Shown in pieces: positions 2,714 to 64,000 of a stretch of 64,000 bases of DNA; the first letter of the stretch is position 1, and the number at the start of each line of letters is the position of its first letter. The notes beneath the pieces are model-generated. The model was not told where the DNA came from. It did no database searches and was given only the letters and a program-made list of their open reading frames with translations. Source of the stretch: an uncultured bacterium. Its GTDB lineage: Bacteria; Edwardsbacteria; AC1; EtOH8. Where the stretch lies: positions 29,584 through 93,583 of the forward strand of contig CAZFJC010000009.1 in NCBI GenBank assembly GCA_964518765.1, in the 5' to 3' direction. The position numbers and the translations under genes were made by a program.

Positions 2714-3529
2714 TTACTGGTTCTTGAGGCTGAAGGTGATCGGATACATGACCCAAACCCTGGTGGCCTTGCCTCCCGGGGCGATGGCTGGGGTGAAGAG
2801 CACGGTCTTGCCGGCCTCCAGTGCGGCCTCGTCCAGCACCGGATTGCCGGAGCTCTTGGCCAGTTCCACCCGCATCACTCGCCCATCGATGTCCAGTAGC
2901 AGCTGCAGATAGACCCGACCCTCGGCCTGGGCCCGCTTGGCTATTTCCGGATACTCCACCTTAGCATGTCGGATGACCTCCGGGTTCTTTTCCACCGCCA
3001 CGAAGGCGGTCCGGTCGGGTATGGCCGCGTCCACCACCATGGCGCCGGTTGCCCCCATATCGCCCGAGGTGGCGGCTCCGGCCGAGATGGCACCCAGCTC
3101 CGACTGGGTGGCCGCGGCTTCATCCACCGCCTGGTCGTCGGGTACCGGCGTAGGAATGCCCACCGTCGGGGCCGCCCCGGCCGCCCCGGCCACTTGGACC
3201 TGCTCCACCGAGGAGCCCGTCAGGGACGGCGGCGCCCCCAGCTGGCTGTAGGTGATGCGGACCATGGGCGCCTCCACCGGCGGCTTGTGGGACTCGATGT
3301 AAGCCCCGATGGCCAGGTAGCTCAGTCCACCCAAAACGATGGCCAGCCCGCCGACCAGGGTTATGAACAGCGACTTCTTGAGGTTCAGGGGCATGATCAC
3401 CTTTGAGCCCTTGACCCCGAAGCCCACCTCCGCCGTTTGGCGCGATTGGACCAGGACCACTATGGAGGCGATCAGGATTCCCACCAGGGAGCCGATCACC
3501 GGCAGGAAAATGTCTATGTTAGGCGACAT
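2714..3529 (-). CDS. tonB: energy transducer TonB (N-terminal TM anchor, Pro/Ala-rich linker, TonB_C domain)
   Basis: N-terminal hydrophobic anchor; C-terminal GRVYLQLLLDIDGRV...GGKATRVWVMYPITF is TonB_C-like. Confidence 0.8.
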   Translation of the reverse strand: MSPNIDIFLPVIGSLVGILIASIVVLVQSRQTAEVGFGVKGSKVIMPLNLKKSLFITLVGGLAIVLGGLSYLAIGAYIESHKPPVEAPMVRITYSQLGAPPSLTGSSVEQVQVAGAAGAAPTVGIPTPVPDDQAVDEAAATQSELGAISAGAATSGDMGATGAMVVDAAIPDRTAFVAVEKNPEVIRHAKVEYPEIAKRAQAEGRVYLQLLLDIDGRVMRVELAKSSGNPVLDEAALEAGKTVLFTPAIAPGGKATRVWVMYPITFSLKNQ

Positions 3530-3530
3530 C

Positions 3531-4241
3531 CTACCTCCCTCCTCTCTGCGGCGGTTTCTTGGGCCGGAGGTCCTTGACCGCCACTCCCTTCTTCAGGGCC
3601 TCCTCCACCAGCTTTAACTCCTCCTCCTTCTGCTCCACGATGGCGAAGCGGGCGATCTGGTTCTGCTGGATGGCGTCCATAGCGGCCACCACCTTGTCGT
3701 ACTGGCTGAGGCGGTTGACCTGGACCAGCACCGTGAACCGGCAGATCTTCTCGTCGCGCACCCGCTCCATGCTATCGCGGACGGTCTTGGGGATGTCCTT
3801 GGGCATGGCCTCGAAACGCTTGAGGAATTCCTCGCCCGATTCGTAGAACACCTGGGTGCGCCCGTCGATGTGCTGGGGCTGCTTCTTGATGTTGGCCAGT
3901 TTGGCTCGGGCCAGCAGCGAATCGAGCGAATCGACCTCTACCGGCTTGGGCGGGTCAACCGCCATGTTCTGGAGTATGGTCCCGTCCGGCATGATGTTCA
4001 GGATCATGACGCTGGATTCGGGGACCCCCTTCTCGGTGCCCTCCGGGTTCTCCGGCGGCAGGGTGATCTCGATGGCCTGGGGCTCCCGGAACCGGGTGGT
4101 GGTCATAAAGAAGATCACCAGCAGGAATCCGATGTCCACCATCGGAGTCATATCCAGAATGATGTTGGGCTTTCCCTTCCTTTTATGGAGGCCGCCTTTC
4201 TTTTTACCGCCCTCGGGGGCCCCCATGTCTACTGCGCCCAT
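3531..4241 (-). CDS. exbD: ExbD/TolR family biopolymer transport protein (second copy, long C-terminal extension)
   Basis: IILDMTPMVDIGFLLVIFFM signature; GGGAGG SD before the ATG at about 4241, which avoids overlap with the upstream exbD. Confidence 0.8.
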   Translation of the reverse strand: MGAVDMGAPEGGKKKGGLHKRKGKPNIILDMTPMVDIGFLLVIFFMTTTRFREPQAIEITLPPENPEGTEKGVPESSVMILNIMPDGTILQNMAVDPPKPVEVDSLDSLLARAKLANIKKQPQHIDGRTQVFYESGEEFLKRFEAMPKDIPKTVRDSMERVRDEKICRFTVLVQVNRLSQYDKVVAAMDAIQQNQIARFAIVEQKEEELKLVEEALKKGVAVKDLRPKKPPQRGGR

Positions 4242-4245
4242 GCCG

Positions 4246-5016
4246 TCACCTCCCTTCCTCGCCAAACACCGGCTTGGCACCAGCTTTCAGGTTGGTCACC
4301 AGGCTGAACCTGAGCATGTTGACGTCCTTCTTCTGTAGGATGGCCGTCAGGTCAAGCATTTTGCCCGATTGGCATTTCTTGTCCACCATCAGCACCATCA
4401 TCATCTTGGGATTGCGCATACGCTCGTCAACGATGGTCCGGGCCAGGTCTGCCAGCGGCAGCGGCTGGGCCGCCTCCTTGTCGGTGTAGTACCAAATTAC
4501 CATGCTGTCCACCCGGGCGGTGTACTGTTCCGGGGTAATCGAGGCCGTCTCCTGTTTGGCCGCCCGATTGATGAAGTTGCCCGGCCGCTGCACCTCCTTG
4601 ATGGCCAGCTCGGCCGCCCGGCCCCGTGACAGCGGTTTTCCCGGTGCCCCCACCACGTCTTTAAGCAGTTCCAGGGAGCCCAGGGAGATAATGGTCCCTC
4701 TGGCCTTTAGACCTTCCACCGAGAGGTCGGGCTCGGACGAGACCTCACGGATATCGTTGATCAGGGCCAGCAAACTGGTGGGACCGATGCTGTCAGCCAG
4801 CTCTTTGGCCTGGTCCGGATTGAGCACGTTGATCACCATGACGTTGGACTCGGGCACCTTGAAGGGCGACCTTGAGTCCGGCAACTCTACGCTGACCGTG
4901 GTCGGCGGCCTGGCATGGTAGGTGGACATGAAGAAGATCACCAGCAGGAAGGCGATGTCAACCATCGGGGTCATATCCAGGATGATCCTGGCCCGACGTT
5001 TCATCTTCACCGCCAT
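4246..5016 (-). CDS. exbD: ExbD/TolR family biopolymer transport protein (first copy)
   Basis: RIILDMTPMVDIAFLLVIFFMST N-terminal signature. Confidence 0.85.
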   Translation of the reverse strand: MAVKMKRRARIILDMTPMVDIAFLLVIFFMSTYHARPPTTVSVELPDSRSPFKVPESNVMVINVLNPDQAKELADSIGPTSLLALINDIREVSSEPDLSVEGLKARGTIISLGSLELLKDVVGAPGKPLSRGRAAELAIKEVQRPGNFINRAAKQETASITPEQYTARVDSMVIWYYTDKEAAQPLPLADLARTIVDERMRNPKMMMVLMVDKKCQSGKMLDLTAILQKKDVNMLRFSLVTNLKAGAKPVFGEEGR

Positions 5017-18441: not shown

Positions 18442-18475
18442 GAAAATAAGAAGCCCGGGTCGATAAACCCGGGCT
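18442..18475 (-). terminator. rho-independent terminator downstream of the acyl-CoA dehydrogenase gene
   Basis: Stem AGCCCGGGT / ACCCGGGCT followed by a U-rich tract on the minus strand. Confidence 0.6.
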
Positions 18476-18493
18476 TTCCTGGCCGCTCGTCCC

Positions 18494-19654
18494 TTATTCC
18501 TTGGAACCGGCCGCCTCCTTGATGAGGTTGGAGGCGATGACCGTCCGCTGGATCTGGTTGGTGCCCTCGTAGATCTGGGTGATCTTGGCGTCGCGCATCA
18601 TCTTCTCCACCGGATATTCCTTCATATAGCCGTAGCCCCCCAGCACCTGGACGGCGTTGGTGGTCACCTCCATGGCCACGTCCGAGGCGAAGCACTTACA
18701 CATGGCGCTCTCCTTGGAGTACTTCTTCTCCCCGGCGTCGATCATTCGGGCGGTGGCGTAGACCAGGGCCCGGGCCGCCTCCAGCTTCATGGCCATGTCT
18801 GCCAGCAGGAATTGCACTCCCTGGAAGGCTGAGATCGGCTTGCCGAACTGCTCTCGCTCCCTGGAGTACCTGACGGCCTCGTCCAGCGCCCCCTGGGCGA
18901 TGCCCACCGCCTGGGCGGCCACCCCGGGGCGGCTGCGGTCCAGCGTTCCCATGGCCACCATAAAGCCCATGCCCTCCTTCCCCAGGATCTGGCTTTTGTG
19001 CACCCGGCAGTCCTCGAACACCAACTCCCGGGTGGCCGAGGCCCGGATGCCCATCTTATTCTCCTTCTTGCCGAAGCTGAAGCCCGGCGTTCCCTTCTCC
19101 ACGATGAAGGCGGTGGCCCCTCGACTGCCCTTGGAGCGGTCGGTCATGGCCACCACCGAATAGACCTCAGCCTCGCCGCCGTTGGTGATCCACTGCTTGG
19201 TGCCGTTGAGCACGTAGTGATCACCTTCGCGCATCGCCGTGGTCTGGATGCCGCCGGCGTCAGAGCCGGCGTTGGCCTCGGTCAGGGCGAAGGCCGCCAG
19301 CCGTTTGCCCTTGGCGATGTCCGGCAGGTACTTCCTCTTTTGCTCGTCGGTGCCGTAGAGGATAATGGGAAAGGTTCCCAGGCCGGTGGCAGCGAAGGAC
19401 AGGGAGATGCCGCCGCAGAAACGCGACAGCTCCTCGGTGGCGATGGCCATCTCGGTGACCCCCCCGCCCAAACCGCCGTACTCGGCCGGGATGTAGACCC
19501 CGCAGATGTCGGCCTCGGCCAGCACCTTGACGATCTCCCAGGGGAACTCCCCGGTCTCGTCGTAATGCTCCCGCACCGGCTTGATCTTCTCCGCCCCTAT
19601 CTTGTGGCAGAGGTCCTTGATCATCTTCTGCTCTTCGGTCAGAAAGTAGTTCAT
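18494..19654 (-). CDS. acyl-CoA dehydrogenase (short/medium chain, butyryl-CoA DH-like)
   Basis: 386 aa, collinear ACAD fold motifs (ends YEGTNQIQRTVIA). Confidence 0.9.
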   Translation of the reverse strand: MNYFLTEEQKMIKDLCHKIGAEKIKPVREHYDETGEFPWEIVKVLAEADICGVYIPAEYGGLGGGVTEMAIATEELSRFCGGISLSFAATGLGTFPIILYGTDEQKRKYLPDIAKGKRLAAFALTEANAGSDAGGIQTTAMREGDHYVLNGTKQWITNGGEAEVYSVVAMTDRSKGSRGATAFIVEKGTPGFSFGKKENKMGIRASATRELVFEDCRVHKSQILGKEGMGFMVAMGTLDRSRPGVAAQAVGIAQGALDEAVRYSREREQFGKPISAFQGVQFLLADMAMKLEAARALVYATARMIDAGEKKYSKESAMCKCFASDVAMEVTTNAVQVLGGYGYMKEYPVEKMMRDAKITQIYEGTNQIQRTVIASNLIKEAAGSKE

Positions 19655-22113: not shown

Positions 22114-22282
22114 GGGGTTCACCTCCTTTGTTTGGGATTTTGTTTGGTTGGTAATTTGCTATACTTATATACTATTAATCTTGTTGTCGTTCCGAGTTCA
22201 GTTCCTGCTCAGCCATCGAAGGTTCTTTGCCGGATGCTTCGGCAGTCGAACAAAACGCCGTCCGCAGCATGACGGAATCCAA

Positions 22283-41414: not shown

Positions 41415-41496
41415 CCCTTTCCCCTTCCCTCCCTTCACCGGCCAAGCTTGCTGTCATCCTTAGGGCAGACTCTGGGAAGGGTCAGGGGTTAGGTCC
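41415..41496. repeat. solo copy of the GGACCTAACCCCT/CCCTTCCC terminal-repeat family (no cargo)
   Basis: GGGAAGGGTCAGGGGTTAGGTCC matches the reverse complement of the DUF559-element end; CCCCTTCCC half-site; interior CTGTCATCCT resembles the 62.7 kb repeat ends. Confidence 0.35.
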
Positions 41497-60622: not shown

Positions 60623-61579
60623 TTAGCCTTCCTTCCTGGTGGCCTCGGCCACCGCCGCCACCTCGCCGCCGGTCAGCAGGTAGAGCACCGCCATCCGCAC
60701 CGCCACCCCATTGGTCACCTGGTCCAGGATGACCGATCTTGTCCCGTCGGCCACCTTAGGGTCTATCTCGACGCCGCGGTTCATGGGCCCGGGGTGCATA
60801 ATGGTGACGTCGGGCTTGGCCCCTTTCAGCCGTTCCTCGGTGACGCAGAACAGGCGGGAGTATTCGCGCAGGGTGGGCAGCAGGCCCTTCTTCTGGCGCT
60901 CCAGCTGGAGCCTCAGGATGTTGACCACATCGGCCCACTCCAGGGCCTCCTCGAGTTTATAGAAGATCTTGACCCCCAGCTCTTCGATGCCGATGGGTAT
61001 CAGGGTGGACGGCCCGCAGACCGCCACCTTGGCTCCCAGCTTGGTCAGGCCGTGGATATTGGAGCGGGCCACCCGGGAGTGGGTGACGTCGCCTACTATC
61101 AGCACGTTCAGGCCCGAAAGCTTGCCCCGCCTCTCCCGCATGGTGAACATATCCAGCAGCCCCTGGGTGGGGTGGGCGTGCTGGCCGTCGCCGGCGTTGA
61201 CCACCCCGGCCTTTATCCGCCGGGCCAGGAAGTGGGGGGCCCCGGAGGACGAGTGGCGGATGACCACCAGGTCTATCTTCATGGCCTCCAGGTTTCGGGC
61301 CGTGTCCAGCAAAGTCTCGCCCTTGGTGACCGCCGAGGTCTTGGGGGAGATGTTGACGGTGTCGGCCATCAGCCTCTTGGCGGCCATGTCGAAGGAGCTG
61401 GAGGTACGGGTGGAGGGCTCGAAGAACATGTTGACCACGGTCCTGCCGCGGAGGATGGGCACCTTCTTAATAGGCCGGTCCAGCACCTCCCGGAAGCTCT
61501 TGGCCGTGTCCAGCACCATGTTTATCTCACCGGCCGAGAGCGACTCCAGATCCAAAAGGTCCTTTCTATTCCACTTCAT
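60623..61579 (-). CDS. pyrB: aspartate carbamoyltransferase catalytic subunit
   Basis: STRTR carbamoyl-phosphate-binding motif; HPxQ and HPGP motifs. Confidence 0.95.
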
Positions 61580-62120
61580 CCGCCTTCTCCTTGATGATCA
61601 CCTTCACCTCCCCGTCCTCCTCCATAGTCTTCACCCCGATGATCTCCTTCTGCGAGGTGGGCACGTTCTTGCCCACGTAGTCGGCCTTGATGGGCAGCTC
61701 CCGGTGGCCCCGGTCGATGAGCACCGCCAGCTCCACCCGCTTGGGACGGCCGAAGTCCAGGATCTCGTCCAGGGCCGCCCGCACCGTGCGCCCGGTGTAG
61801 AGGACGTCGTCCACCAGCACCACCACCTTGTTGGTGACGTCGTGGTTGAGCTCGGTCTGGTTGACCACCGGCTGGTGGGCGATGGTTTGCAGGTCGTCGC
61901 GGTAGAAGGTGATGTCCAGGGCGCCGTATGGCACCTCGGTCTTCTCGATCTCCCCGATCATCCTGGCTATCTTGCGCCCCAGGCTGTCGCCCCGGCGCTT
62001 GATGCCCACTATCAGCAGGTCCTGGGTTCCCTTGTTCTTCTCTACGATCTCGTGGGCGATGCGGGTCAGGGCTCGCTCCACCGATTTGGCGTCCATGATG
62101 ACCGCCTTCTGTTTGGTCAT
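61566..62120 (-). CDS. pyrR: bifunctional pyrimidine operon attenuation regulator / uracil phosphoribosyltransferase
   Basis: PRTase motif [13 protein letters not shown]; about 180 aa; first gene of the pyrR-pyrB-pyrC arrangement. Confidence 0.9.
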
Positions 62121-62344
62121 GGTCCCCTCCGTATGTTAAATTAATATTACTGCTCAGGTCCCGCACTTCGATATGCCCGCCGGGTCTCGAAGATCACCTG
62201 GTTCAAACATAAGTACAGCCGCCGATGGCCGAGTAAGCCGCCGTCTCGATACGCCCGCTATCGGCGGACTACTCGACGTGAGGCTGTATCGAGGCCAGGT
62301 AGCCGTATCGTTATCCGGCGGACAATGCAACGACGGCCGGGCAA

Positions 62345-62380
62345 GAAAAAAGCCCCCGGCTCCCTTGGGGAACCGGAGGC
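62345..62380 (-). terminator. attenuator terminator in the pyr leader
   Basis: Minus-strand RNA GCCUCCGG-N13-CCGGGGGC followed by UUUUUUCUU, about 230 nt upstream of the pyrR ATG. Confidence 0.6.
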
Positions 62381-62418
62381 TTCTTTATGTGATTTGGAGA
62401 TCGGCATCATGGTCCTTT

Positions 62419-62436
62419 CTGACCTCACGGGATCAG
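62419..62436 (-). promoter_or_regulatory. PyrR-binding (anti-antiterminator) stem-loop CUGA-UCCCGUGAGG-UCAG in the pyr leader
   Basis: The loop matches the UCCNGNGAGG core of the conserved PyrR recognition motif and lies just upstream of the attenuator. Confidence 0.55.
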
Positions 62437-62459
62437 ATTTAAAGGTAACAACTATGGTT

Positions 62460-62488
62460 ATTATACCCTAGATCGGACGGGATGTCAA
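62460..62488 (-). promoter_or_regulatory. perfect-consensus sigma70 promoter TTGACA-N17-TATAAT for the pyr operon
   Basis: Exact hexamers and spacing, about 340 nt upstream of pyrR, in front of the PyrR box. Confidence 0.55.
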
Positions 62489-62504
62489 GGGTAAAGGAAG
62501 CCCC

Positions 62505-62639
62505 TCAGCCCGGCTCCCTTTTCACTGGCTCCCGGCTTTGTTTGACGACGGCCGCCCAAGCCGCCAGCGCCGCGGCCAGCATGGCCGCCGCCAGCCCGCC
62601 CAGCACCCACAGGCCTTTGTTGTTATTGGATGATTGCAT
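62505..62639 (-). CDS. possible small (44 aa) single-TM protein
   Basis: ATG with a hydrophobic core (GLWVLGGLAAAMLAAALAAWAAVV); below the ORF-track cutoff; the pyr promoter lies immediately 3' of it. Confidence 0.3.
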   Translation of the reverse strand: MQSSNNNKGLWVLGGLAAAMLAAALAAWAAVVKQSREPVKREPG

Positions 62640-62698
62640 AACGGTTTGACAGCGATTGGTTTTTCGGTTGGTCGAAAAGGGTGACGGGGTCAGGTCTG

Positions 62699-62911
62699 CT
62701 TGTCATCCTGAGAAGGCCCCTCGCCCTGCTGGTTGAAGGATGACGCTAGTAGTCACCCATTCGACTTGTCACGCAAAGCGCCGGGCTCAGGGTGACAGGG
62801 CGCTTCGTTCTCTGTCATCCTGAGATGCCTTGCCTGCCCGACAGATTGAAGGATGACTCTGTATGTCACCCGTTCGGCTTGCCGGGCACGATGCCATACT
62901 CAGGATGACAG
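62699..62911. repeat. two tandem copies (period about 112 bp) of a roughly 100-bp element with 13-bp terminal inverted repeats CTGTCATCCTGAG...CTCAGGATGACAG and a conserved core GTCACCCRTTCGRCTTG (MITE-like or structured RNA)
   Basis: Conserved blocks interleave with equal-length variable blocks in both copies; the internal GGATGAC can also pair with the 5' GTCATCC. Confidence 0.5.
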
Positions 62912-63246
62912 ATTAAAGTCCGATACCCGGTTCGCTCGGGCCAACGAAATGCGCCATATAAGAATACACCCGTACCTTTTGAAAATCAAGAAAAATGTTC
63001 GGGTGTTTTCCCGCCCCCTATTATCTCCATGCTGCTGGAGGGAAAAACACTTTTGTAACAATATTGCATCCATCTGCAATATTTTTCATCTGCGCCCTCC
63101 GGCGACCGTTGCTACCCATAAATGTATATTATTGCCGGGAAAGATGTTACATAACGGCATCAGTCGCGGGCATAAAAAATGCAATATAGACGGGAAATGC
63201 CGGTCCATTCATTAGCATACTATCTATTTCCCGAGAAAGGACATCC

Positions 63247-64000
63247 ATGCGTCATAACATTCGCGCGCTGACCGCCACCCTGTCCCTTCTTTTGGCGGTT
63301 CCGGCCCTGGGGGGTGAGTTATATCATGTGGTCGAATTCGACACGGGGAACTTGGTTTTCCAGAAAAACGGAGGGTACGACGTTGTAGGGCTTGTTGACG
63401 TTCCATCTTTCGGCCCCTCGGGCGCGCCGCGCCTGCCGAGGCTGGTCCAGCAGATCTCCATCCCGGCCGGAGCCGTGGTCACCGGGGTCGAGGTGGCCTC
63501 GAGTGATGTCATCGAGCTAGAGGGGACCTACGACGTGATCCCGGCCCAGAAGTCGGTGCCCCTGCCCATGCCGGGAAAGACGTTCGACATAAAGACGGTC
63601 GAGCCCGACCTGGCCATATACGACCGGAACGCCCTGTATCCGGAGAGGCAGGCCGAGGCCCTGTCCACCGGCAGTTTGGGCGGCTACCGCATCGGGCACG
63701 TGGCGGTCAATCCGGTGAGGTACAACCCGGCCACCAAGAAGCTTTACCTGGCCCGGAGCCTGACCCTCAGGATCAGCTATCGGGAAAATTGGGCCGAGGG
63801 CACCATCCCCACGGCCAGCCAGCAGGCGCTGTTCGGCTCGCAAGCCAGGGCCCTGGTGGCCAACCCCGGGGACGTGGACCGCTTCGCGCCGCGGGTGGAG
63901 AGGCGGGCCTCCAAGGCGCTCCCGGCCGGCGAGTACCGCTCGGTCATCATCTCCGGGCTGGCGGCCTACGACACGGTCTTCGCCCGGCTGGCGGCCTGGC
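63247..64000 (+). CDS. N-terminal part (signal peptide plus propeptide-like domain) of a gingipain-like peptidase family C25 protein; continues beyond the window
   Basis: Signal peptide MRHNIRALTATLSLLLAVPALG; C25 N-terminal-domain-like motifs (RIGHVAVNPVRYNP..KKLYLARSLTLRISY); open to the window end; the upstream region is AT-rich. Confidence 0.55.
   Translation, partial: MRHNIRALTATLSLLLAVPALGGELYHVVEFDTGNLVFQKNGGYDVVGLVDVPSFGPSGAPRLPRLVQQISIPAGAVVTGVEVASSDVIELEGTYDVIPAQKSVPLPMPGKTFDIKTVEPDLAIYDRNALYPERQAEALSTGSLGGYRIGHVAVNPVRYNPATKKLYLARSLTLRISYRENWAEGTIPTASQQALFGSQARALVANPGDVDRFAPRVERRASKALPAGEYRSVIISGLAAYDTVFARLAAW

Follow-up and report, generated by a model that had tools for sequence, protein, structure and literature searches.

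What are the two adjacent palindromic units that lie upstream of the pyr operon promoter in a 64,000-nucleotide (nt) stretch of DNA from an uncultured bacterium of the Edwardsbacteria lineage (assembly GCA_964518765.1, contig CAZFJC010000009.1, positions 29,584 to 93,583; hereafter the window), and do they serve this operon? We consider it likely that the units, W1 and W2, belong, as copies without a gene, to a widespread family of palindromic DNA repeats and are deletion derivatives or solo dimers of a cassette in which two repeat arms enclose an ssn gene (arm-ssn-arm), and that they act at the level of DNA with no specific role at pyr. Each unit is a head-to-head dimer of two arms of about 45 nt that carry the tag (C/T)GTC-AT and a terminal GTCAYCC box pairing with an inner GGRTGAC box. 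In other bacteria the family is physically linked to genes of the Ssn family, a decayed intermediate included, and the interest of the case lies chiefly in this cross-phylum family and its nuclease link rather than in the window locus.

The two tandem units, each about 97 nt long, have in common the ends TGTCATCCTGAG and CTCAGGRTGACA and a conserved core, and both run in the order TGTCATCCTGAG, TTGAAGGATGAC, a 7-nt centre, GTCACCCRTTCGRCTTG and CTCAGGRTGACA. The parts are as follows.

62701 to 62797, no strand: unit W1, a palindromic repeat dimer of two inverted arms that forms a long imperfect hairpin on either strand; blocks TGTCATCCTGAG (62701-62712), TTGAAGGATGAC (62733-62744), 7-nt centre (62745-62751), GTCACCCATTCGACTTG (62752-62768) and CTCAGGGTGACA (62786-62797)

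62701 to 62744, plus strand: W1 left arm, in which the tag and terminal box TGTCATCCT pairs with the inner box AGGATGAC over 8 bp around a 24-nt segment

62752 to 62797, minus strand: W1 right arm, reading TGTCACCC...GGGTGAC on the minus strand, the 'heterodimer' partner with its own stem ACCC/GGGT instead of ATCC/GGAT

62798 to 62812, no strand: spacer of 15 nt between W1 and W2, GGGCGCTTCGTTCTC

62813 to 62910, no strand: unit W2, the second palindromic repeat dimer; blocks TGTCATCCTGAG (62813-62824), TTGAAGGATGAC (62846-62857), 7-nt centre (62858-62864), GTCACCCGTTCGGCTTG (62865-62881) and CTCAGGATGACA (62899-62910)

62675 to 62700, no strand: probable remnant of a third copy, with a right end AAAAGGGTGAC and a spacer GGGGTCAGGTCTGCT

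A preliminary description, made from the letters alone, had recognized two adjacent copies with a shared block structure, a conserved core and reverse-complementary ends, all of which direct reading and a repeat search bear out. The terminal inverted repeats measure 12-14 nt, and at W2 they amount to a perfect inverted repeat of 14 nt if the flanking base pair at either side is counted in (62811-62824 and 62899-62912); the same search aligned the units as a direct repeat of 76 nt with 71% identity at a spacing of 113. Within the window the terminal 12-mer, at no more than one mismatch, occurs only in the four unit arms and at 41452, the 17-mer core is confined to W1 and W2, and a covariance model of the unit, run with its filters off, detects only W1 and W2 (114 and 111 bits), the next match scoring 16.9 bits (E 0.074). 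The search for further copies that had been advised is thus fruitful in other genomes, with at least 120 family loci and one further pair in a diverged metagenome contig (L122; our own locus numbers are given with an L), but within the 64 kb it returns W1 and W2 only. Copy B of L122 is preceded by a right end and spacer (...CAGGGTGACAGAGTCTTGTCTGCT) to which the remnant at 62675-62700 is similar, and this likeness suggests that the array once comprised a third copy.

How the units fold is informative about what they are. The stretches of about 22 and 17 nt between the conserved blocks had been described as loops that vary. They do differ in sequence between W1 and W2, but within each copy they base-pair with one another and are thus the middle of a long stem, so that the notion of variable loops is refuted. 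Folded as RNA, W1 reaches -46.7 kcal/mol on the plus and -46.4 kcal/mol on the minus strand (z -4.6 and -4.4), and W2 reaches -51.1 and -58.8 kcal/mol (z -6.6 and -8.7); DNA folding parameters agree with this picture of a long imperfect hairpin on both strands. That the two strands fold about equally well is expected of a DNA palindrome. The single long hairpin is more stable than two separately folded arms by 11-23 kcal/mol. Each arm can also form a stem-loop of its own, in W1 by pairing GTCATCCT with AGGATGAC (-6.8 kcal/mol for the left arm, folded as DNA) and GTCACCC with GGGTGAC. That the 5' GTCATCC has an alternative partner in the internal GGATGAC had been foreseen, and covariation backs it. 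Copy A of L122 has GTCATCCC/GGGATGAC where the window has GTCATCCT/AGGATGAC, a compensatory T>C/A>G change within the left arm, and across the family an outer GGGT goes with an inner NCCC in 24/24 cases and an outer GGAT with NTCC in 112/115. The right arm co-varies internally, independent of the long hairpin. Arms are thus stem-loop units in their own right, and numerous elements are, like W1, heterodimers. The compensatory changes that the preliminary description had wished to see among collected copies are present in 18 of 29 pairs of the family alignment, a number that 0/500 shuffles reach, with 95.7% of cells paired, in an alignment that was fitted to the model and that includes both strands of the palindromes.

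The family was delimited with an exact-match scan of one genome per species for GTCATCCTGAG-N60-90-CTCAGGRTGAC, and the family counts given below rest on the loci listed by that scan. At least 120 loci were found in more than 10 phyla (Bacteroidota, Acidobacteriota, Alphaproteobacteria, Chloroflexota, Verrucomicrobiota, Gemmatimonadota, Planctomycetota, Armatimonadota, Patescibacteria, Firmicutes and Actinobacteria among the groups represented), and the listed matches are all imperfect palindromes of 82-112 nt in the order GTCATCCTGAG, a variable part, CGAAGGATC, a variable stem-loop, GATCCTTCG, a variable part and CTCAGGATGAC. A subtype from Alphaproteobacteria, TCGAAGGATG...CCCTTCGAGG...CTCAGGGTGAC, is very similar to the window type, and a covariance model built from four window-type copies alone recovers family members across phyla with E values down to 6e-7. 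The copies lie between co-directional genes in 54 cases, convergent genes in 24 and divergent genes in 11, and they form tandem arrays and nested half-sites. Whole-element tandem arrays with a spacer of ~55 nt and a period of ~150 nt were seen in Thermoanaerobaculia and in a metagenome-assembled genome (MAG) of the Planctomycetota (L079 6750-7140, L100 5972-6420, L101 755-1151 and L054); their flanks are identical, indicating that arrays grow by duplication of whole units. Target-site duplications were found neither at the window copies nor in 109 of the 120 listed family copies. Instead, the palindrome runs on into the unique flanks by at least 4 bp in 16 of the 120, and by up to 48 bp. Such extensions are seen in Hymenobacter and other Bacteroidota (L046 1-200, where it reaches 48 bp, and L055, L073, L078, L083 and L111), often with an A-run to one side and a T-run opposite, which gives the impression that elements lie within other palindromic repeats, or at the middle of palindromes or bidirectional terminators that were there before them. 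Viral contigs carry the element at only 17 loci and homologues of the GIY-YIG nuclease discussed below in only 6. A literature search with GTCATCCTGAG and variants of CTGAGCGAAGCGAAG returned unrelated primers only, and the motif is mentioned neither in the RepRanger paper nor in a 2024 survey of MITEs (miniature transposable elements with inverted repeats). The feature in the window is ordinary in kind, a diverged member of a very widespread, poorly catalogued repeat class linked to Ssn nucleases. This repeat class explains spurious short open reading frames (ORFs) and puzzling 'conserved' intergenic blocks in the genomes and MAGs of many phyla.

The link to a nuclease emerged from a motif and phmmer scan of the family loci. 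Five lineages, which belong to at least three phyla, have small genes for a single GIY-YIG domain (assigned to PF01541) in association with the repeat.

L019, Hymenobacter glaciei: arm at 4083, gene at 4131-4433, dimer at 4433-4533

L096, Fimbriimonadaceae MAG: dimer at 2636-2747, gene at 2799-3122, dimer at 3143-3246

L165, viral contig: perfect arms at 1424-1478 and 1621-1673 around a decayed gene

L187, Spirosoma oryzicola plasmid: a full element, TGTCATCCCGAGGAACGAGGGATC...GGGATGACA, precedes the gene, whose product is WP_232563592.1

L188, Planktothrix agardhii plasmid: an AT-rich version, TGTCATTCTGAGTGAAACGAAGAATC...CATTCAGGATGACA, on both sides of the gene, with nested half-sites; the product of the gene is WP_083616022.1

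The decayed gene of the viral contig still holds MPYYV... and ...REKQLKGW...NPKWSDL, and this intermediate suggests a route from nuclease cassettes to ~100-nt palindromes. The Fimbriimonadaceae protein is 52% identical (E 2e-18) to the product of a Neisseria gonorrhoeae gene that has canonical CGTCATTCCCGCGCAGGCGGGAATCTAG repeats on both sides, which is the NTS-ssnA-NTS layout. With tblastn the same protein finds 37 plasmid records, some of which are mislabelled chromosomes. NCBIfam holds no family name for these proteins, and the PDB only distant UPF0213 relatives. SsnA is a 94-residue single-domain GIY-YIG protein that binds and cuts single-stranded DNA at tagged hairpins (NTS/SRM) and is inactive on double-stranded DNA and on RNA; cleavage hinges on the three nucleotides in front of the palindrome, and binding on the C after it (PMC11893778). 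The ssn genes are typically flanked by their own repeats, and many Ssn-repeat pairs are expected (PMC11893778, Nat Commun 2025). Our results extend this partnership of nuclease and hairpin repeat to a repeat class outside the published search pattern, and they supply candidate enzyme-substrate pairs in H. glaciei, S. oryzicola, P. agardhii and the Fimbriimonadaceae MAG.

Other surroundings of the nuclease gene and of the arms were also encountered. On P. agardhii plasmid p1 (record 18450-19516) the ssn homologue of L188 stands between a type IIL MmeI-like restriction-modification gene and the DISARM helicase gene drmA, and thus inside a defence island. In an Aminivibrio MAG (L034 3200-4850) nested half-sites surround a HicB-like antitoxin gene, and in a Verrucomicrobia MAG (L036 5221-5716) a small ORF lies between left and right half-sites 485 nt apart, layouts which indicate that arms can bracket cargo other than ssn. 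Close GIY-YIG homologues in L166-L175 (Afipia-like) and L176-L185 are located between phage portal and terminase genes or beside rpoD and are flanked by another hairpin repeat, GTGTCCCGGAYGCGG...CCGGGAC, in what looks like another Ssn-repeat pair. In two viral contigs (L160/L161 1300-2000) the gene is flanked by CGTCACCCCGGACNTGTTCCGGGG repeats, a classic CGTC-type repetitive extragenic palindromic (REP) sequence that the published SRM pattern misses.

It is possible to place the family beside three known kinds of repeat. With the Ssn repeats (NTS/SRM) it shares the (C/T)GTC tag followed by AT, the oriented hairpin units and, in parts of the family, the repeat-ssn-repeat layout, with an embedded nuclease that is 52% identical to the one between NTS repeats in Neisseria. 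A tag of the published form, HGTC followed by W-Y directly upstream of the palindrome (PMC11893778), is found at all four window arms, whose outer ends read TGTCAT, the W1 right arm excepted, which has TGTCAC when read on the minus strand; since the inner GAC complements their GTC, the tag is not necessarily unpaired. The family stem, CCTGAG...GAAGG, differs from the TCCCGCG...CGCGGGA of NTS, the window arms enclose 24 nt where the Ssn repeats have a loop of 3-5 nt, no C follows their palindrome, most of the elements are inverted dimers of ~100 nt, and no ssn gene is seen in the window. The motif is absent from the main text of PMC11893778. The second comparison is with the CGTC-tagged REPs, whose tag is CGTC, TGTC or CCTC and whose stem begins with AT (Di Nocera et al., 2013, PMC3733652). 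These occur mostly as head-to-head dimers with the tags outside, often heterodimers, with spacers of 20-100 bp that have complementary ends, and they have no known dedicated transposase and reportedly lack any association with RAYT genes (PMC3733652). The family resembles them in all these respects, with a CGTC/TGTC tag at the outer ends of inverted dimers, a stem that starts with AT, 20-100-bp spacers with complementary ends, dimers of unlike stems, a preference for convergent or unidirectional gene pairs, and likewise no known dedicated transposase. In the window the arm ends read TGTC-AT with the tags outside, and W1 is a heterodimer (left ATCC/GGAT, right ACCC/GGGT). The families CGTC-1 to CGTC-4, however, have stems of 8-9 bp, loops of 4-5 nt and a CCA tail, for example GTCATTCCCGCGAAAGCGGGAATC (PMC3733652), whereas the window arms have a closing stem of 7-8 bp around 24-27 nt and no CCA-like 3-nt tail; the general type of our family, for its part, could be identical with one of the families in that paper. 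Thus, the family is like both Ssn repeats and CGTC-REPs, yet the SRM pattern and the REP stem and loop sizes do not fit, and it falls outside the formal sequence definitions of both. A third likeness is to REPINs and BIMEs, which are also inverted dimers that fold as two hairpins or one long one, cluster in tandem and persist in intergenic DNA. These bear a GTAG tag and are mobilized by RAYT, whereas our family has another tag and, in place of an HUH Y1 transposase, a GIY-YIG nuclease as its associated enzyme.

Taken together, these likenesses would fit a scenario in which the ~100-nt palindromes are either arm-ssn-arm cassettes after loss of the gene or solo repeat dimers. When DNA becomes single-stranded, in replication, transformation or repair, the arm hairpins could serve as recognition sites for a cognate Ssn-type nuclease, and the elements may persist and multiply as selfish or domesticated repeats. 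The window pair, along with the remnant of the third copy, would then be a passenger in the promoter-distal part of the intergenic region.

Several observations weigh against descent from an ssn cassette without a role at pyr. The published SRM pattern, HGTCWYN(0-2)YYVSBRHN(0-5)WNVSBRGN(0-2)RNCYNB, matches the NTS control but neither strand of W1 and W2, nor an arm of the general family type. The nucleotide directly 3' of the palindrome is G, T or A in the window arms (...GGATGAC-G/T and ...GGGTGAC-T/A) and not the C that is critical when SsnA binds NTS; the general family type does have GGAT-C after the palindrome. No GIY-YIG ORF was found in the 64-kb window or in ~150 kb from relatives. In alphaproteobacterial contigs, those of Afipia among them, it is another hairpin repeat, of the TGTCCCGGA type, that flanks the closest GIY-YIG homologues, and the GTCAYCCTGAG element is 1.3 kb distant. 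No clean empty site that would speak for mobility was found. Finally, the same tandem pair stands upstream of the pyr promoter in L122 as well, and between this contig and the window the boxes are nearly invariant while mid-stems and flanks have diverged, which leaves room for a local role.

A bolder version of this reading is that a mobile cassette found across bacteria, with an Ssn-type GIY-YIG nuclease for single-stranded DNA as its sole gene, has the GTCAYCYGAG...GAAGGAT palindromes as its MITE-like, non-autonomous form, a proposal that we regard as tentative and on balance doubtful. Ssn enzymes may then mobilize, or control the copy number of, a class of hairpin-ended elements that has not been described as such. 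Insertion may proceed without target duplication, often into existing palindromes or so as to extend them, and the window-type arms, without the C after the palindrome and with heterodimer stems, may represent a divergent branch, either served by a cognate nuclease of its own or kept by the host for a local purpose.

Of the readings that dispense with a cassette, the one that survives best holds that the pair is a DNA element with a function in the pyr region, be it an upstream operator array, an insulator or terminator against read-through, or a recombination hotspot. We nevertheless think this unlikely. The surroundings of the pair are these.

62488 to 62460, minus strand: pyr operon promoter, a perfect TTGACA-17-TATAAT, outside the element and listed for context

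62340 to 62488, minus strand: complete pyr control region, with the sigma-70 promoter, the PyrR-binding anti-antiterminator and a terminator-like hairpin with a T-run at about 62345-62385

62400 to 62449, minus strand: PyrR-binding leader, an anti-antiterminator that partially matches RF00515 (the match being cut by the query range)

61566 to 62120, minus strand: pyrR, which follows the control region and is itself followed by pyrB and pyrC

62505 to 62639, minus strand: 44-codon ORF without a Shine-Dalgarno sequence upstream, absent from L122, L123 and L131

63248, plus strand: start of a gingipain-like ORF on the other side of the units

The promoter is real, as had been claimed. The proposed connection of the units to it does not hold up, since they lie more than 200 nt upstream of its -35 box, hence outside the pyr transcript, and are missing there in the closest relatives; neither attribute of a pyr cis-regulatory element, a place in the pyr transcript or conservation with the operon, was found. 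The genome behind the window traces to samples ERR4534291 and ERR4549765. Two Logan contigs are identical to the window, and a metagenome scan with the window-type core, a very specific query, returned a single diverged contig, L122 (FWPV01028176.1). Here the tandem pair is again found immediately upstream of a pyr promoter and PyrR leader, with a terminator, a comEA-like gene and ftsZ on the other side, and this recurrence, together with boxes better kept than their flanks, speaks for a local function. We gathered the orthologous pyr upstream regions of relatives by way of their PyrR homologues. Closer relatives, whose pyr genes share 84-90% nucleotide identity, have the promoter and leader intact but not the pair upstream, which is absent in L123-L125, L127, L130, L131-L136 and L138-L140; since no relative gathered in this manner carries it, there is no deep alignment of the window subtype. 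Family elements do occur inside the pyr 5' untranslated region (5'UTR) of two relatives, L131 (780-885, the right half) and L138 (2085-2200, also in L139), downstream of the PyrR attenuator terminator and ahead of the pyrR start codon; the L138 copy is AT-rich (CGTCATTCTGA...GAAGAATC...GCATGACGG). These, too, could be taken in favour of a local function. Yet absence of the pair in the closest relatives, with family copies elsewhere in the pyr 5'UTR, indicates that it is not a conserved part of pyr regulation.

Also in favour of a local function, almost every relative has a different gene directly upstream of its pyr promoter (L123, L127, L130, L131, L138 and L140, compared with 62900-64000 of the window), being comEA-like/ftsZ, peptidyl-prolyl isomerase (PPIase)/TonB-ExbD, TPR/TrkAH, small ORFs or an EamA gene, and gingipain-like in the window. 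This change from relative to relative marks the region as a rearrangement breakpoint. As for an insulator or terminator, the W1 and W2 hairpins are not followed by a T-run, T-runs are not enriched on the sense strand after family elements (6/36), and the upstream gene in the window is divergent, so there is no read-through to block. Moreover, the family adjoins unrelated genes in many phyla. A function for pyr is improbable for a pair that recurs upstream of this operon in a single metagenome contig but is missing from the closest relatives, and at the window locus the pair most likely has no specific role in pyr expression.

Could the units instead act as RNA? It had been suggested that the unit might fold as a structured RNA with alternative helices, and a rival reading is a structured non-coding RNA, small or cis-regulatory, that switches between the long hairpin and two shorter ones. 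The strong fold z-scores (-4.4 to -8.7) would suit this, as would the covariation that backs both the long hairpin and the arm hairpins, and on the sense strand in co-directional contexts G-U pairs exceed A-C pairs (81 versus 58 pairs, 17 versus 7 elements), a mild bias that is not significant. However, the two strands fold about equally well, and the Rfam scan that had been recommended gave no match to the units, neither at the gathering threshold in the window nor, for any relevant family, at E <= 10 in 62400-63250; among 18 family loci no Rfam match overlaps an element. No promoter-like or terminator-like site brackets the units, which lie outside the pyr transcript. The family flanks a gene for a DNA nuclease of a kind that is inactive on RNA, and the units are missing from this locus in the closest relatives. 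An RNA is thus very improbable, and the pair should not be labelled as a small RNA, a riboswitch or a pyr regulatory site.

Little, too, can be said for a classical MITE, that is, a deletion derivative of an insertion sequence with a DDE transposase, mobilized in trans through its terminal inverted repeats. Terminal repeats of 12-14 nt, a length of ~100 nt, an intergenic position and many copies in the family are what such an element would show, and the label MITE-like in the preliminary description is apt insofar as these are non-coding, non-autonomous palindromic repeats. It fails for a MITE in the strict sense, which would be expected to have target-site duplications and a DDE transposase partner. 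The duplications are lacking in the copies counted above and the flanks tend to extend the palindrome instead, clustering of neighbouring ORFs around the 120 listed loci revealed no recurrent transposase or other gene, and the only gene found between arms is the GIY-YIG nuclease. We therefore give this explanation very little weight.

Least probable of all are REP or REPIN elements mobilized by RAYT (TnpA-REP, an IS200/IS605-like Y1 transposase), because, although REP-like hairpins occur here as inverted dimers in tandem clusters and the gene orientations given above show a preference for gene 3' ends, the tag is (C/T)GTC and not GTAG, CGTC-type REPs are reported not to be RAYT-associated (PMC3733652), no Y1 transposase family recurs near the elements and no arm-flanked RAYT was found in ~1.1 Mb of family loci.

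Some minor features of the window and of the family loci complete the picture. The 44-codon ORF at 62505..62639 exists as first described, but it is without a Shine-Dalgarno sequence and is not conserved in relatives, so that it is probably not a gene. A CTGTCATCCT fragment reported at 41451 is indeed present, although as a weak candidate for a decayed arm: 41452..41490 on the plus strand, between convergent ORFs, reads TGTCATCCTTAG, 12 nt and GAAGGGTC and might be a solo arm in decay; it fails to fold, and the covariance model gives no match there. A possible decayed element of a sister subfamily, TGTCGTTCCGAG...CGAAGGTTC...CGCAGCATGACGG, lies at 22181..22278 on the plus strand and accounts for the 16.9-bit match (E 0.074) of the covariance model; its right end resembles the pyr 5'UTR element of L138. 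Known RNAs are found near two family elements, the Rfam Flavo-1 RNA at 64 nt from the element in Flavobacterium (L035 1661-1911) and the small RNA BjrC1505 at ~300 nt from the element in a Methyloceanibacter MAG (L017 2043-2574).

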